IMG/VR virus record: IMGVR_UViG_3300034102_002845
From: a virus
Taxonomy: Duplodnaviria; Heunggongvirae; Uroviricota; Caudoviricetes
Length of the DNA stretch: 64,000 nucleotides
Strand: one strand, 5' to 3'
Shown here: one piece after another, positions 1 through 62,009 of the stretch
Numbering within the stretch: the first letter of the stretch is position 1
Layout: every line of letters starts with the position of its first letter
Program-made: the position numbers and the translations under genes
Notes under the pieces: generated by a model
What the model saw: the letters and a program-made list of their open reading frames with translations, nothing else
Told to the model about the DNA's origin: nothing
Database searches by the model: none

Positions 1-306
1 CCTGAAGTCTCGCCGGAGGGAATTGAAAATTCCGGGTACGCACCGAAGTCCTTAGACGCTGCTCTCTACCACTTTGGGTCAACTTCGTCCTTTAAAGAGG
101 CCATCCTGCAGGCTGTGAACTATGGGGACGACTCAGACACGGTTGCTGCGATTACGGGGCAGCTAGCGGGTGCTTACTACGGGTATAAGGCTATACCAAA
201 GCGGTGGATTTCAGGGTTGCACGACAGTGAAAGACTTTTGCTCATAGCAAGCACTTTGTACGACCTTTCGTTTGGGGCGGTTCCCCCCCCCTTGTTTCTA
301 CTCTGA
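1..306 (+). CDS. ADP-ribosylglycohydrolase family protein, C-terminal part (5' end lies outside the window)
   Basis: Frame 1 is open from position 1. The translation ...SGYAPKSLDAALYHFGSTSSFKEAILQAVNYGDDSDTVAAITGQLAGAYYG matches the conserved C-terminal GDTDT...AGA..G region of the ARH/DraG family. Confidence 0.55.
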   Translation, partial: PEVSPEGIENSGYAPKSLDAALYHFGSTSSFKEAILQAVNYGDDSDTVAAITGQLAGAYYGYKAIPKRWISGLHDSERLLLIASTLYDLSFGAVPPPLFLL

Positions 307-319
307 AATAACGTATAAT
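274..319 (+). promoter_or_regulatory. hairpin plus sigma70-like promoter cassette
   Basis: GGGGCGGttCCCCCCCC; -35 ttgttt 292-297; -10 tataat 314-319; ATG 348. Confidence 0.55.
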
Positions 320-347
320 ACCCTTACTTAAGCTCTCGAAACCGCAA

Positions 348-755
348 ATGCATTTCTACGCGATCACACGCCGCGACCTTGACCCTGCTCAGCAAGCTAT
401 TCAGGCGGCTCACGCACAAGTTGAGTTTGCGAGAGTACACCCTGATTCTTTAGCCCAAGACCACCCGCCTTTCGTATGGCTATCGGCTGAGAACAAGTGG
501 GAGCTTTTGCAACTCTCGTGTGTTCTTCGGAGTTACGGACTCTCGGTGGTAGAATTTCACGATCCGGACTACAAGGGGTTTGACCCCAGTGCCCTAGCGT
601 GCCTGGTCGACGAAGACCACCGCTATGTGCTCTCTGAGTTCCCTTTATGGGTTCCCCTCAGGGCTACGCCGGTTGGACACCAAGGGGAAACGGTAGCTTC
701 ACATTTTTTCTCACTAATGCGGGAAGGCCGCTTGGAGAACCACGCGGAGGGGTAA
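348..755 (+). CDS. peptidyl-tRNA hydrolase PTH2-like protein
   Basis: YAITRRDLDPAQQAIQAAHAQVEFA and VVEFHDPDYKGFDPSALACLV align with archaeal/eukaryotic Pth2 (VIVVRSDL..GKIAAQVAHA ; [21 protein letters not shown]). Cassette promoter at 274-319. Confidence 0.5.
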   Translation: MHFYAITRRDLDPAQQAIQAAHAQVEFARVHPDSLAQDHPPFVWLSAENKWELLQLSCVLRSYGLSVVEFHDPDYKGFDPSALACLVDEDHRYVLSEFPLWVPLRATPVGHQGETVASHFFSLMREGRLENHAEG

Positions 756-764
756 AGTACCTTA

Positions 765-1985
765 GTGCTTGCTTCGGTTGTACGAATGTACGGAGAAATT
801 TCCCCTGATACCCTGGCGTTTGTGCACGACTTTACCCGTTGTGTGAAACCGGACGGTGGGGTGTACGGTACGGCAGGACAATGTCGCAAGGGGGTGGAGT
901 CCGCAAAGGAAACTCGCAGCATTCGACGAGAGTCTGTGCTTAAGAGTGTAGAACTTTACCAAAAGAATGGCTCTGACGATCTAAACAAGAATCTAAAGAC
1001 TCTTGAGGGAATGCTCTTGTCAAAGCCGGGGTACCGCACACATCTCACTGAGAGTGCACTTACCGCCTTGCGGTATCTTCGCCTAAAGTCCCACTTGGAG
1101 AAGAAGGCAGAGCAGACACAACAAAAGGGAGCTCTTCAGAGTCAATACGAAGAATTAGGGAGAAACTCACCGAAGTACACGCAAACACCCGGATCGAGCA
1201 AACCTTTACCGAAAGCCACGGTTGAGAAAGAGGTTGAGCTTCTTGAAAAAGAACTTGAAGCACTGAAGAAAAGAGTCCGAGCAATAGGAGAGCCTACCGA
1301 CGACGTGTCAAGAGAGAAGCTTTTACACCTGCAAAAGGAAGGTATGGAGCTCGGTCGAACACTTTCGAGTGCTCGCAAGGGCACTCTGTTACCACCGATT
1401 CTCACGTCTGTGTACGAACGACAAGGTTTTCATGCTCGACCGGAAGTTGTTGCAACACGATCGGAACTAGAGTCAAGAAAGGATATAGCTAGGAACCCTG
1501 ACGGAAGGCCAATTGTAGCCTATCGCGGCGTAAGTTCAAATGAGTTTTCCTTGCAGTTCAAAGGTGGTGGTCCAGACGGAGACAAGCACTTTCCTGGTGG
1601 CGGGATTTACGGGAGTGGGAGTTACTCTGCTTCTTCACCTTCATCTGGCAAGGTTAAACATGATAAGTGGGCCCAAGAGACAGCGAAAGACTATACAGGT
1701 GACTGGAGAAACGCCACAACCATGGTTTCAGCTTTTGCATTTCGGTCCGACGCACGACTCGTTCAGTTTGAGGGGGAGGGGAAGCAGTTTAAGCAGTGGG
1801 AAGAAGAAACATTGAAAAAGGCAAGAGAGATAACAGGGTATGACCATCACGATGTTGGATCCGCCGCTGCATCACTCGGGATACATGCGTACAGAGTTCC
1901 TCAAACAGACGGCCAAGACTTCTGGGTTGTTCTCAACCGTGGAGCAATCATCGTAGCGAACGACCCTGAATTAACACCGGACTAA
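765..1985 (+). CDS. hypothetical protein, coiled-coil N-terminus, C-terminal region with R-S-E ADP-ribosyltransferase-like motif order
   Basis: AYRG ... GSYSASS ... QFEGEG in the spacing expected for the cholera-toxin/T4 Alt-type ART fold. Weak, motif-level only. Confidence 0.3.
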   Translation: MLASVVRMYGEISPDTLAFVHDFTRCVKPDGGVYGTAGQCRKGVESAKETRSIRRESVLKSVELYQKNGSDDLNKNLKTLEGMLLSKPGYRTHLTESALTALRYLRLKSHLEKKAEQTQQKGALQSQYEELGRNSPKYTQTPGSSKPLPKATVEKEVELLEKELEALKKRVRAIGEPTDDVSREKLLHLQKEGMELGRTLSSARKGTLLPPILTSVYERQGFHARPEVVATRSELESRKDIARNPDGRPIVAYRGVSSNEFSLQFKGGGPDGDKHFPGGGIYGSGSYSASSPSSGKVKHDKWAQETAKDYTGDWRNATTMVSAFAFRSDARLVQFEGEGKQFKQWEEETLKKAREITGYDHHDVGSAAASLGIHAYRVPQTDGQDFWVVLNRGAIIVANDPELTPD

Positions 1986-60073: not shown

Positions 60074-60097
60074 TAGTACAAGACCAGAGAAACTGAC

Positions 60098-60730
60098 ATG
60101 GAATCCCGCACCAAGTACCCCAGGACTTTTCATCTACCTTGGTCAGAAGCTGTAACGTCTGACGACAAGGTTGTTCCGTCCGTCGTTCATTTTGAGGGCA
60201 ACCGCGTGGTTGTGACGGAAAAGATGGACGGTGAGAATACAACGATGTACCGAGACTATGTTCACGCCAGGAGCCTGGACAGCAAAGGTGGTGAAGACCG
60301 CGCATGGGTGAAGCAATTCTGGGCTTCGATCCGTAGTGAAATCCCTGAAGGGTGGCGAATCTGTGGTGAAAACCTCTGGGCGAAACATTCTGTTTCTTAC
60401 TCCAACTTGCACTCATACTTTTACGGGTTTAGCATTTTTGACGAGCACAACCGGGCATTGTCATGGGAGGACACTGAAGACTACTTTGAAATGTTAGGGG
60501 TCACCCCTGTTTCCGTTCTTTACTCTGGACTCTGGGACGAGACCGTGGCCCTTAATCTGGCAAAGGGCCTGGACACCAACACGACAGAAGGCTATGTAGT
60601 TCGCCTTGCTGATTCCTTTCACTACGATAACTTTAGCACTTCTGTTGCTAAGTTTGTCCGTAAAGGTCACGTTCAAACTGACAAGCACTGGAGGACGCAG
60701 CAGCTTGTACCTAACTCTTTAGTAACCTAA
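60098..60730 (+). CDS. minimal Rnl2-like ATP-dependent RNA (polynucleotide) ligase
   Basis: Motif I EKMDGEN (compare T4 Rnl2 EKIHGTN), motif III ICGENLWAKH, motif IV EGYVVR, motif V KFVRKGH, in the correct order and spacing for a 210-aa nucleotidyltransferase core. Confidence 0.55.
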   Translation: MESRTKYPRTFHLPWSEAVTSDDKVVPSVVHFEGNRVVVTEKMDGENTTMYRDYVHARSLDSKGGEDRAWVKQFWASIRSEIPEGWRICGENLWAKHSVSYSNLHSYFYGFSIFDEHNRALSWEDTEDYFEMLGVTPVSVLYSGLWDETVALNLAKGLDTNTTEGYVVRLADSFHYDNFSTSVAKFVRKGHVQTDKHWRTQQLVPNSLVT

Positions 60731-61057
60731 AACAACAACAATGCTAAACCTTGAGGTTTCAAACCGAATCACAGCTGCTGAAGCTTCACAGAGGTCTGTA
60801 ACTCCCCCGTACCCACAAGCTAACCCTGAAACCGTGAGGAGATTTTTGGAGCACTGCTACAAAGCCATACGTGAGGATATTAAGAGGGGTTACGGTGTCA
60901 AGTATACGAACGTTTACTTTGGAGACTGCGATTACTCCACTAAAGGGGAAGTTGCTAGAGTTCTAGAAGAAGAAGATGGGTACAAGGTTAGACTAGTTGG
61001 GACCCTTCACATTTTAATTTCCTGGTAATTTAATCACAACTACTTAACCTTGAAACC

Positions 61058-61573
61058 ATGGCAACTATTTACAAACCACCGGCACAGCTACCCCCTTTCT
61101 CGTCGAGGCTCAGTGTGTTTCTTGCAGGTTCGATAGAAATGGGCTCTGCACCCGACTGGCAAGCTGACCTCGAACGTAGTCTTGCTGACCACGACATTGA
61201 TATTTACAATCCGCGACGCGACGATTGGGACCCGACCTGGCAGCAAAGAGCGAACAACCATAAGTTTCGTGAGCAAGTAGAGTGGGAACTTGACGGCATA
61301 GAGAAAGCTGACTTGGTTGTAATGTATCTTGCACCGAGTACCATCGCACCTATTTCTTTGCTCGAACTTGGCTTCTTGTCCGGACTCGGCTTTTACGCTC
61401 TTACAAACACGGTTGTGTGTTGCCCTGAAGGATTCCACCGTAAGGGTAACGTTGACATTGTCTGTGACCGATATGGGATTCCACAGGTTTCAAGTCTAGA
61501 GGGACTTGAGCTTGCAATACGAACTGTAAGTGCCAGGTTTCAGGCCAGGTTTCAGAAAAGTTTCGTAGAGTGA
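61058..61573 (+). CDS. nucleoside 2-deoxyribosyltransferase/DNPH1-like protein
   Basis: VFLAGSIE N-terminal motif and ADLVVMYL...ISLLELGFLSG (catalytic Glu context). Confidence 0.45.
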   Translation: MATIYKPPAQLPPFSSRLSVFLAGSIEMGSAPDWQADLERSLADHDIDIYNPRRDDWDPTWQQRANNHKFREQVEWELDGIEKADLVVMYLAPSTIAPISLLELGFLSGLGFYALTNTVVCCPEGFHRKGNVDIVCDRYGIPQVSSLEGLELAIRTVSARFQARFQKSFVE

Positions 61574-61965
61574 ACATGATTTACACCACCCACACATCAT
61601 CCACATCATACAACTATCCACCCCATCTCCCGGACTTCGAAGACATGGACTCGGACGGTGCCATTGAAATTTTGATGGGAGAAGAAGAGGACGGGCACCA
61701 ACATACTAAATTCGAGAGTGTGGCGCACTATAGAAACCAGGGGTTAACGCACCCTTGGCGTCACACCAAAGACTGGGCTCCTCGCTCAAACTACACCGAG
61801 GAGGACTTTACCTGGGCTTTGTCGAGAATTTTGAACACAGTTACCTGTTCTCGTGACCTTCGTAGCAAGGGCCTTGGGCTCACCGACGACGAATGCCGAC
61901 GCATATACTCAATGCGAGACCGGGCTAGGGAGGTAGCGAAGCACGATGGGTAACCGGTTGCTCCG

Positions 61966-62009
61966 GGGCGGTTTCCCGCCTTGTTTTCTTGGACGGGGGA
62001 CGCTATACT
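61966..62009 (+). promoter_or_regulatory. hairpin plus promoter cassette
   Basis: GGGGCGGtttCCCGCC; -35 ttgttt 61981-61986; -10 tatact 62004-62009; ATG 62039. Confidence 0.55.

Follow-up and report, generated by a model that had tools for sequence, protein, structure and literature searches.

Promoter-early stem-loops (PeSLs) are repeated intergenic cassettes of T4-like phages, known from phi1/RB49, PST/T4 and nt-1/KVP40, in which a strong sigma70-type promoter is combined with a polyG/polyC stem-loop (Arbiol et al. 2010, PMC2839356; Comeau et al. 2014, PMC4122927). Within hyperplastic regions they cluster between ORFan genes, lacZ assays have shown that they possess both promoter and terminator activity, and they are implicated in module shuffling through recombination between cassettes and the formation of mini-circles (PMC2839356, PMC4122927). 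In the phi1/RB49 PeSLs a stem-loop is found in the spacer that separates the -35 box from the -10 box, and a reporter assay showed termination of transcription by such a stem-loop (PMC2839356, PMC4122927). Here we describe a cassette that is repeated throughout a 64,000-nucleotide stretch (the window) of the IMG/VR virus record IMGVR_UViG_3300034102_002845, a member of the Caudoviricetes. Our analysis suggests, with a probability that we put at about 60%, that this cassette is a PeSL-type stop-and-restart element of a large uncultivated phage, and that the inverted repeat in its promoter spacer is a second stem-loop in the PeSL style. Its sequence family is new and varies the PeSL design, but neither the kind of element nor the mechanism is novel.

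The likeness to PeSLs extends to copy number, promoter type and structure, and probably to context. Numerous copies, almost identical to one another, lie between genes and point the same way as the short early or ORFan genes that they accompany; its promoter is of the sigma70 type (TTGYYT, N17, TATAnT in place of the PeSL -35/N17/-10); where a PeSL has a stem-loop in or beside the promoter, the window cassette has both an upstream GC hairpin and a spacer stem-loop; and, like PeSLs, it may be associated with gene-content differences between close relatives. Two RB49 sequences that we inspected, TTGACA-GGGGATCACCGATCCCC-TATACT and TTGACA-GGGGAGGATAACTCCCC-TACAAT, have spacer stem-loops whose arms differ between the copies and, taken together with the PeSL papers, they indicate that a covarying spacer palindrome is an already described PeSL property. 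An earlier sequence-only reading of this DNA had not recognised the cassette from any described phage; PeSLs, and the first of these RB49 sequences in particular, provide that precedent.

The window cassettes nevertheless form another sequence family, from an uncultivated lineage, and depart from PeSLs in several features. The region upstream of the promoter, AT-rich in PeSLs, is G/C-rich hairpin sequence between -24 and -38, the -35 box TTGYYT doubles as a T-tract, and a second, distal hairpin is often present about 22 base pairs (bp) further upstream. The spacer stem-loop has the same position as in RB49, but its arms are quite different from the G4/C4 arms found there: it is A/T-rich, has a pyrimidine left arm and a purine right arm, overlaps the -35 box, and covaries strictly by Watson-Crick pairing without tolerating G·U. 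Finally, PeSLs end in a Shine-Dalgarno (SD) sequence and an ATG, whereas the window cassettes lead to an ATG without SD, which is leaderless or preceded by a short untranslated leader.

Number, position and anatomy of the cassettes

A search with the pattern GGGCGGNNNNCCGCC, allowing up to one mismatch, gives 40 matches in the window against 0.79 expected. A profile search built from seed copies identifies 29 full cassettes, 29 of 29 on the plus strand, and a further five or six copies are variant or degenerate (those with the -10 box at 5613, 32492, 38524, 8132 and 57076, plus the copy at 38384), in good agreement with the figure of about 35 given by the sequence-only reading. The same reading had placed a cassette before almost every gene, which is an overestimate: the window has about 120 plausible genes for 29 cassettes, or roughly one cassette per four genes, and a cassette heads a unit of about four genes on average. 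The cassettes are co-oriented with the genes and lie between a stop codon and the next start codon. Related phage contigs in IMG/VR, which reach 279 kb, contain more than 200 additional copies, always in the orientation of the genes; copies pooled from the window and its relatives number 238, of which about 160 are distinct. No DNA match was found in 50,697 phage records, either by megablast of 25 kb or by blastn of a single cassette, and the cassette sequence family is therefore not represented in cultivated phages.

Read from 5' to 3', a cassette may begin with a distal GGGCGGTWAACCGCC hairpin; the proximal hairpin, GGGCGGTTTCC(N)CCC, then precedes the -35 box, the spacer and the -10 box. 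Coordinates are counted here from the start of the -10 hexamer. The distal motif, GGGCGGT(T/A)AACCGCC, is present in 92 of the 163 distinct copies and is centred about 22 bp upstream of the proximal motif, GGGCGGTTT(C/A)CC(N)CCC, which lies at about -38 to -24. The -35 box, TTG(T/C)(T/C)T, occupies -23 to -18 and is followed in most copies by a spacer of 17 nucleotides (nt). Copies that had been described as doubled turn out to be the distal and proximal hairpins of one and the same cassette.

In close relatives an entire extra hairpin unit of 16-21 nt has been inserted into the cassette or lost from it, as seen in L013, an orthologue of the copy at 13035-13084, and in L015 and L028, orthologues of the copy at 20808-20857. 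Hairpin units thus duplicate and delete as blocks. An all-against-all blastp of the window proteins revealed no association between cassette subfamilies and paralogous downstream genes.

The promoter-like half and the start codons

Across 150 distinct copies the -10 box is conserved as T147 A149 T136 A137 n T150, and a hierarchy of this kind, led by T1, A2 and T6, is canonical for sigma70-type -10 boxes. The consensus at this place reads cG(G/C)-TATAnT: in the same copies C is found at -3 in 129 and G at -2 in 146, the latter corresponding to the -14 G of the extended -10 element, while the three central bases of the spacer carry no information. The hexamer AAACGG had been taken as fixed before the -10 box; its C and G are indeed fixed, but the AAA varies with the left arm of the spacer repeat. 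Between orthologues, no part of the cassette changes more slowly than the -10 box, which has 0.027 changes per site; the -35 box has 0.075, the hairpin 0.077 and the flanks have 0.10-0.19. The overall consensus is as proposed from the letters alone, namely a GC stem-loop followed by a T-rich tract that serves as the -35 box of a sigma70-type promoter. A simple scan for terminator and promoter consensus sequences was uninformative and was set aside.

The distance from the -10 box to the ATG, which had been given as 3-30 nt, is instead bimodal, being either exactly 6 nt or 19-32 nt (up to 55). Of the 166 distinct copies, 36 have an ATG exactly 6 nt past the -10 box, where chance would give 1.6%, and so do all six cassettes of one relative (L046, 861-19969); in the window it is seen at 5237, 17429, 30073, 43872 and 51424. 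The 6-nt gap implies a leaderless mRNA, as a transcript starting about 7 nt past the -10 box would have the A of the ATG as its first base, and this exact spacing therefore provides independent support that the -10 box is used. Several of the open reading frames (ORFs) with a 6-nt gap open with the same ATGGAAAAC, though their proteins are not paralogues.

SD-like 4-mers precede only 9% of the roughly 120 window starts, for which the first ATG of each ORF was taken, compared with 16% of random 15-mers. The phage, and presumably its host as well, thus does not appear to rely on SD-led initiation.

The inverted repeat in the promoter spacer

The commonest form of the spacer repeat, the main class, is TTGTTTCTGC-NNN-GCAGAAACGG, in which the 8-bp arms are invariant and the centre is essentially random (CTC, TCT, AGC, GTC, GGT, AGG and CCC, among others). 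It occurs in dozens of paralogous copies, including copies in phages that have no other DNA similarity to the window, and it is never found outside promoter cassettes. Other copies have other complementary arm pairs, such as GTCTTTGC/GCAAAGAC, GTTTTCTC/GAGAAAAC, CTTTCC-N4-GGAAAG, CTTTCTC/GAGAAAG and CCCTT/AAGGG, and relatives with 65-84% identity in RNA ligase keep the repeat with different arms again (GTTTTCGC/GCGAAAAC, GCTTTC/GAAAGC and TTTGC/GCAAA). Complementarity is kept through at least 10 arm sequences, loops of 3-7 nt and shifted centres, and 70 of 94 distinct 23-nt spacers share the same symmetry centre.

Covariation between the arms was evaluated on 127 distinct sequences in a fixed 8-bp register, using 500 shuffles and slid registers as controls. 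Paired cells make up 71.9%, compared with 63.4±0.8 in the shuffles, and double-change cells number 148, compared with 84.7±6.6, neither value being reached in any of the 500; the covariation score is 0.337, against 0.215 for shuffled sequences and 0.09-0.21 for slid registers. In addition, chimeras of left and right arms from different copies fold worse than the real sequences (-3.40±0.22 versus -4.59 kcal/mol; 0 of 300). The claim that the spacer arms change together between copies thus exceeds the shuffle, slide and chimera controls alike, and the spacer stem-loop appears to be under selection for strict complementarity. Part of this signal comes from subfamilies and not from independent events. 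Unpaired columns also have high mutual information, dominated by subfamily structure and register shifts, and column mutual information was for this reason not used as evidence of pairing. Among orthologues, the repeat of the copy at 20852 is re-registered, and that of the window copy at 62004 has been lost, one arm having been replaced by a block of six changes.

The covariation had earlier been taken to favour a structure over a protein-binding sequence. The arms do covary, but the strict DNA-type pairing and the invariant arms of the main class fit a protein too, and the constraint itself, strict DNA-type complementarity at a fixed place in the promoter, fits an RNA hairpin that depends on its full stability, a DNA hairpin or a protein. 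An Rfam search of the window returned only tRNAs at gathering thresholds, with no cassette match at E-values up to 10; the repeat covaries as a structured RNA would, but with G·U pairs depleted and no Rfam match. The main-class palindrome has only three isolated, chance-level matches, in unrelated taxa, among 185,579 bacterial and archaeal genomes, which rules out a host operator or a prophage as its source.

The upstream GC hairpins

Without exception, the upstream hairpin is formed by a run of G and a run of C; in 130 of 162 copies a T-rich tract (at least 5 T in 8 nt) comes next. It resembles an intrinsic terminator in that a GC-rich hairpin stands right after the stop codon and is followed by a T-rich tract. 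It differs from one in that most stems have only 4-5 of 6 pairs and are weak, that the left arm and loop are conserved in sequence without compensation, and that the run of T is broken (TTGTTTCT). GGGCGG forms the left arm in 86 of 154 copies, and right arms vary, with CCACCC, CCGGCT, CCCCCC and others. The whole region from -80 to -24 has a mean fold energy of -16.9 kcal/mol, and in copies with both motifs RNAfold often favours one long composite helix. All four pairings of the distal and proximal arms score alike, at 3.1-4.0 of 6, and these scores could not discriminate between one composite helix and two separate hairpins.

In three copies, at 5575, 19171 and 32452, a hairpin is flipped, which is consistent with a structural role as a stem-loop, although an inverted protein site is possible too. 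The first of these had been reported as a hairpin in reverse orientation; it is indeed flipped (5575-5589), but it belongs to a complete cassette with a -35 box TTTACC, a -10 box TATAGT at 5613 and an ATG at 5641.

Possible functions of the cassette

In a PeSL-type reading, small transcription units of early or accessory genes would begin at the cassette. Its 3' half would be a sigma70-type promoter for the host RNA polymerase, with a -35 box TTGYYT, a 17-nt spacer, an extended -10-like G and TATAnT, and in about one-fifth of the copies transcription would start on the A of the ATG to give a leaderless mRNA. Its 5' half, made of one or two imperfect GC stem-loops and the T-rich tract that is also the -35 box, would attenuate or terminate incoming transcription, and we propose that each unit would thereby be transcriptionally insulated. 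The spacer repeat would be a second stem-loop, like those in the -35/-10 spacer of the phi1 and RB49 PeSLs. Because the cassettes are near-identical over about 50-100 bp and lie in direct orientation, they are probably also recombination points for swaps of gene modules. The sequences show the repeat family, how it is built, its promoter-like conservation and its covariation, and PeSLs supply the precedent; that the cassette works as promoter and terminator in this phage, and whether the repeat acts at the level of RNA or DNA, are matters of inference.

Several observations weigh against this interpretation. The proximal hairpin has a perfect 6-bp Watson-Crick stem in only 8 of 154 copies and reaches -8 kcal/mol in only 29 of 162 (the median is about -5 kcal/mol), and two upstream ORFs extend through the hairpin (copies 314 and 17417). 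Its left arm and loop are more conserved than its right arm, position 4 (C/A) is never compensated, and in L046 the proximal motif cannot form a hairpin yet retains CGGTTYCC, the distal hairpin being well formed there; these features suggest sequence-specific recognition at the proximal motif, besides structure or in place of it. The spacer repeat, which had been assigned to most copies, is present and covaries, but about one-fourth of the copies have little or none of it, no U-tract follows it, and spacers outside the main class drift between orthologues at 0.11-0.19 changes per site, a rate close to that of the non-coding DNA beside them. G·U pairs are normally tolerated in a helix under selection as RNA, whereas here the ratios of observed to expected pairs, relative to column shuffles, are 0.53 for G·U, 0.66 for A·C and 1.25 for Watson-Crick pairs. 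Homology breakpoints relative to relatives are enriched at cassettes, as a PeSL-like part in module shuffling would predict: 21% of them fall within 30 nt of a cassette, compared with 6.7±3% for random positions, the baseline being random positions and not other intergenic sites. The window consists entirely of accessory and ORFan genes, a context resembling that of the PeSL-rich hyperplastic regions, and the comparison covers regions of this kind only.

The strict pairing would also be expected if the spacer repeat were a double-stranded DNA operator for phage-encoded dimeric regulators that shut off or time the promoters in the course of infection, in which case the upstream GGGCGGTTT motifs, about 22 bp or two helical turns apart, could be further protein sites. 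G·U is depleted like any mismatch, the main-class arms are invariant around a free 3-nt centre even in phages otherwise unlike the window, most spacers share one symmetry centre, the repeat is confined to promoter cassettes and absent from bacterial and archaeal genomes save for the chance-level matches, and the left arm and loop of the upstream hairpin are conserved beyond the needs of pairing. Families of phage operators are likewise short, conserved sites in many intergenic regions, tied to promoters and gene orientation. In known cases, however, such as the stoperators of cluster A mycobacteriophages and the inverted repeats of the phiC31 repressor, there is one fixed sequence and a known repressor, whereas the window arms covary among copies. 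The main class fits a dimeric repressor; the 10 or more other arm types, with their variable loops and shifted centres, do not, and would not be expected from one protein of fixed specificity. The fast drift of the other spacers between orthologues argues in the same direction, as does the occurrence in RB49 of stem-loops with different arms at the same position, which suggests that position and structure are what matters. Among 30 cassette-proximal proteins none had a helix-turn-helix or other DNA-binding domain, and Pfam and PHROG scans of 50 window proteins revealed no DNA-binding regulator, most of the genome lying outside the window. We regard operators for a phage regulator, the main rival explanation of the repeat, as rather unlikely. 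About as doubtful is the broader possibility that the repeat, from the -35 box to the spacer, acts in DNA, either as an extruded hairpin or cruciform that tunes the promoter or as recognition sites for phage factors. A cruciform could, for example, couple the firing of early promoters to the supercoiling of freshly injected DNA, while factors bound to the repeat and to the two GGGCGGTTT motifs might switch more than 100 early promoters at once. The hairpin promoters of the phage N4 virion RNA polymerase have a short stem and a 3-nt loop just upstream of the start, are repeated at early genes and show the same strict DNA-type pairing, but they need specific loop and stem bases and have no -35/-10 boxes. 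The information in the window loop is about 0 bits, and the stem is flanked and overlapped by canonical -35 and -10 boxes; a promoter of the N4 type was rejected for these reasons.

The hairpins and the repeat might, on the other hand, be mainly substrates of recombination or by-products of the spread of the cassette, with the repeated homologies of 50-100 bp driving module shuffling and palindromes made or repaired by intrastrand template switching, so that a mutational process and no transcriptional function would maintain complementarity. The enrichment of breakpoints at cassettes, the gain and loss of whole hairpin units (copies 13079 and 20852), the block replacement of one arm in the copy at 62004 and the strictly Watson-Crick complementarity are all in keeping with this, and recombination between cassettes with formation of mini-circles is documented for PeSLs (PMC2839356, PMC4122927). 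Such a process does not account for the constant position of the repeat in the promoter, for its pyrimidine-rich left and purine-rich right arms, or for invariant main-class arms around a randomised loop, and it is compatible with the other explanations and so is not a true alternative to them; as the main cause of the structures we consider it improbable. Less probable still is the switch proposed by the sequence-only reading, in which the spacer hairpin would compete with the upstream terminator through the T-tract to control termination and antitermination or RNA processing. It is true that the repeat's left arm extends into the T-rich tract behind the GC hairpin, and a read-through RNA would place two hairpins side by side in a stack that could in principle be a processing site. 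The overlap, however, is limited to the T-tract: the repeat shares no base with the upstream stem, both helices coexist in minimum-energy folds, and the right arm is made only after the release point and cannot affect the decision to terminate. There is also no wobble signature of the RNA type and no Rfam match even at the permissive E-value, and how stable one hairpin is does not correlate with the stability of the other (Spearman 0.06-0.08). We reject such a competition; the idea that strong spacer hairpins offset weak upstream ones was rejected as well, for want of any correlation.

Individual copies in the window

All copies described here are on the plus strand. The main class is represented by the copies at 13035-13084 (GTTTCTGC-gac-GCAGAAAC; -10 box TATAAT at 13079, ATG at 13112) and 13731-13780 (TATCAT at 13775, ATG at 13811), and by two long-form copies, both among those described as doubled: 46283-46350 (TATAGT at 46345), in which the sequence from -35 to -10 is identical in 15 orthologues, and 59544-59621 (TATACT at 59616, ATG at 59646). 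The copy at 19171-19235 has a main-class promoter (TATAGT at 19230, ATG at 19255) with a flipped distal hairpin, GGGGGGCAAACCGCCC, and no proximal hairpin, and at 12105-12154 (TATGAT at 12149, ATG at 12180) the spacer is a variant of the main class with compensating changes, GTCTTTGC-tcg-GCAAAGAC. Class 2 includes the long-form copy at 10895-10972, with the spacer CTTTCC-gtaa-GGAAAG (TATACT at 10967, ATG at 11001), and the copies at 20808-20857 (TATAGT at 20852), whose orthologues re-register the repeat as CCCTT-ccg-AAGGG, 22610-22659 (TAAACT at 22654, ATG at 22681) and 23929-23978 (TATAGT at 23973, ATG at 24002).

Long-form copies also occur at 5153-5230, with the distal hairpin CCGGTTAACCG and the proximal hairpin GGGCGGTTTCCCGGC (TATACT at 5225, ATG at 5237, 6 nt past the -10 box); at 9628-9705, with a weak spacer repeat (TAAAAT at 9700, ATG at 9733); at 17345-17422, where the TAA of the -10 box TAAACT at 17417 is the stop codon of the upstream ORF (ATG at 17429, 6 nt past the -10 box); and at 25691-25768, the remaining copy described as doubled (TATAGC at 25763, ATG at 25814). 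The long-form copy at 35893-35970 (TATAGT at 35965) has no spacer repeat, and its distal hairpin is a perfect 16-bp palindrome, GGGCGGTTAACCGCCC; it is followed by a mini-ORF of 18 codons that opens with ATGGAAAAC and starts at 35977, 6 nt past the -10 box. The others are at 43788-43865 (TATAAT at 43860, ATG at 43872, again with the 6-nt gap), 50680-50757 (TATAGT at 50752, ATG at 50782), where the repeat is broken and is intact in orthologues, 51340-51417 (TATAGT at 51412, ATG at 51424, 6 nt past the -10 box), which has no repeat, and 61932-62009 (TATACT at 62004, ATG at 62039), where the perfect repeat of the orthologues, GTTTTCTC-gaa-GAGAAAAC, is lost.

The first copy of the window, at 270-319, has a proximal hairpin, a -35 box, a spacer repeat and TATAAT at 314, with the ATG at 348, and the upstream ORF reaches into its spacer, with a stop at 306. 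Other spacer repeats are CTTTCTC-gaa-GAGAAAG at 24242-24291 (TATAGT at 24286, ATG at 24317), TTTGC...GCAAA at 29597-29646 (TATACT at 29641) and TTCTGC-tcg-GCGGAA, with one T·G pair, at 60024-60073 (TATACT at 60068, ATG at 60098). The left arm is imperfect at 20457-20506 (TATACT at 20501), the hairpin is a perfect GGGCGGTTTCCCGCCC at 27406-27455 (TATAAT at 27450, ATG at 27488), and the repeat is weak both at 30017-30066 (TATAGT at 30061, ATG at 30073, 6 nt past the -10 box) and at 41678-41727, immediately 3' of the tRNA cluster (TATAAT at 41722, ATG at 41758). The copy at 38098-38147 has a weak -10 box, CATGAT at 38142 (ATG at 38169), and that at 54528-54577 has TAAAAT at 54572 and an ATG at 54587.

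Two copies are variants: that at 5575-5618, whose flipped hairpin is GGCGGGAAACCGTCC and which lacks a spacer repeat, its -10 box at 5613 being TATAGT, and that at 32452-32497, with the flipped hairpin GGGCGGGAAGCCGCCC, a -35 box TTGCTT, the repeat TTGCT...AGCAA and TAGTAT at 32492. The degenerate copies are at 8101-8137, where the hairpin GGGGGGTTTACACCCCC takes the place of the -35 box before TATAAT at 8132; at 38384-38437, with a hairpin, TTGCCT and CTTTTC-tag-GAAAAG and no good -10 box; at 38484-38529, with the perfect hairpin GGGCGGTTTCCCGCCC, a displaced TTG and TAAAGT at 38524; and at 57053-57081, where the hairpin AGGCGGTTTTCCGCC lies 7 nt before TATGAT at 57076.

Gene content and phage lineage

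All plausible genes of the window are on the plus strand, and its GC content is about 0.50. The recognisable proteins have accessory or early functions, the genes immediately 3' of cassettes are mostly ORFans, and the window appears to be part of the accessory-gene region of a large uncultivated phage. It encodes NAD salvage functions (nicotinamide phosphoribosyltransferase, or NAMPT, and PRPP synthetase), two or three RNA ligases, a Ro/TROVE-like RNA-binding protein, a tyrosyl-tRNA synthetase (19255-20418), a thymidylate kinase, an HNH endonuclease and a HicB-like antitoxin, in addition to a Tet/JBP dioxygenase, a glucosyltransferase-like protein, endolysin-like proteins and three or four tRNAs. 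The RNA-repair and NAD-salvage genes, comprising three RNA-ligase-like genes, a ligase-associated phosphatase-like gene and those for the Ro/TROVE-like protein, NAMPT and PRPP synthetase, are packed at 5237-8093, 14146-15255, 26272-27393, 30073-30810, 33746-35287, 44338-45045 and 60098-60730.

The protein with a Tet/JBP 2OG-Fe(II) dioxygenase domain is encoded near a protein resembling beta-glucosyl-HMC alpha-glucosyltransferase (52530-54017 and 56219-57046). The pair suggests that the phage DNA contains hydroxylated, glycosylated bases, which, if true, would bear on any reading of the palindromes at the level of DNA.

The HicB-like match is confined to the C-terminal 70 residues of a 180-residue protein (37264-37806). 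Two otherwise unrelated predicted proteins, at 49862-50224 and 54072-54533, have one stretch of 21 identical amino acids, equivalent to about 63 nt of DNA, in common. The two tRNA searches differ at two places: a 112-nt Rfam match at 37138-37249 is absent from the ARAGORN list, possibly on account of an insert or intron, and a 90-nt tRNA-Ile(tat) found by ARAGORN at 40934-41023 is absent from Rfam at the gathering score.

The closest isolates by protein are the Synechococcus phages S-CREM1 and B3/B23, with 61-62% identity; since this holds for single proteins only, they were rejected as close relatives. The 'non-coding RNA genes' of the S-CREM1 paper are unrelated Rfam motifs and were likewise rejected as counterparts of the cassette. 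In IMG/VR there are close relatives at 92-96% DNA identity as well as more distant ones, in contigs of 190-279 kb. A tblastn search with 23 RB49 proteins found no match to T4 core genes in any cassette-bearing locus, these loci spanning early regions only.

Implications for phage biology

Our analysis suggests that the PeSL design extends well beyond the cultivated T4-like coliphages and vibriophages, to a cassette family in uncultivated phages of about 190-280 kb with different translation signals, in which SD sequences are absent and many starts would be leaderless. With more than 160 distinct copies, this family is the best available comparative set for a stem-loop inside a promoter spacer, and the cassette can serve directly as a rule for annotating the transcription units of these metagenomic phages. 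As a self-contained stop-and-restart design, it would insulate small early genes and offer portable homology for gene shuffling. The strict complementarity of the spacer repeat raises a question left by the PeSL literature, namely whether the spacer stem-loop works as an RNA terminator or in DNA. Action at the level of DNA, if true, would give a function to the spacer stem-loops of T4-like PeSLs, which have so far been read only as terminators.

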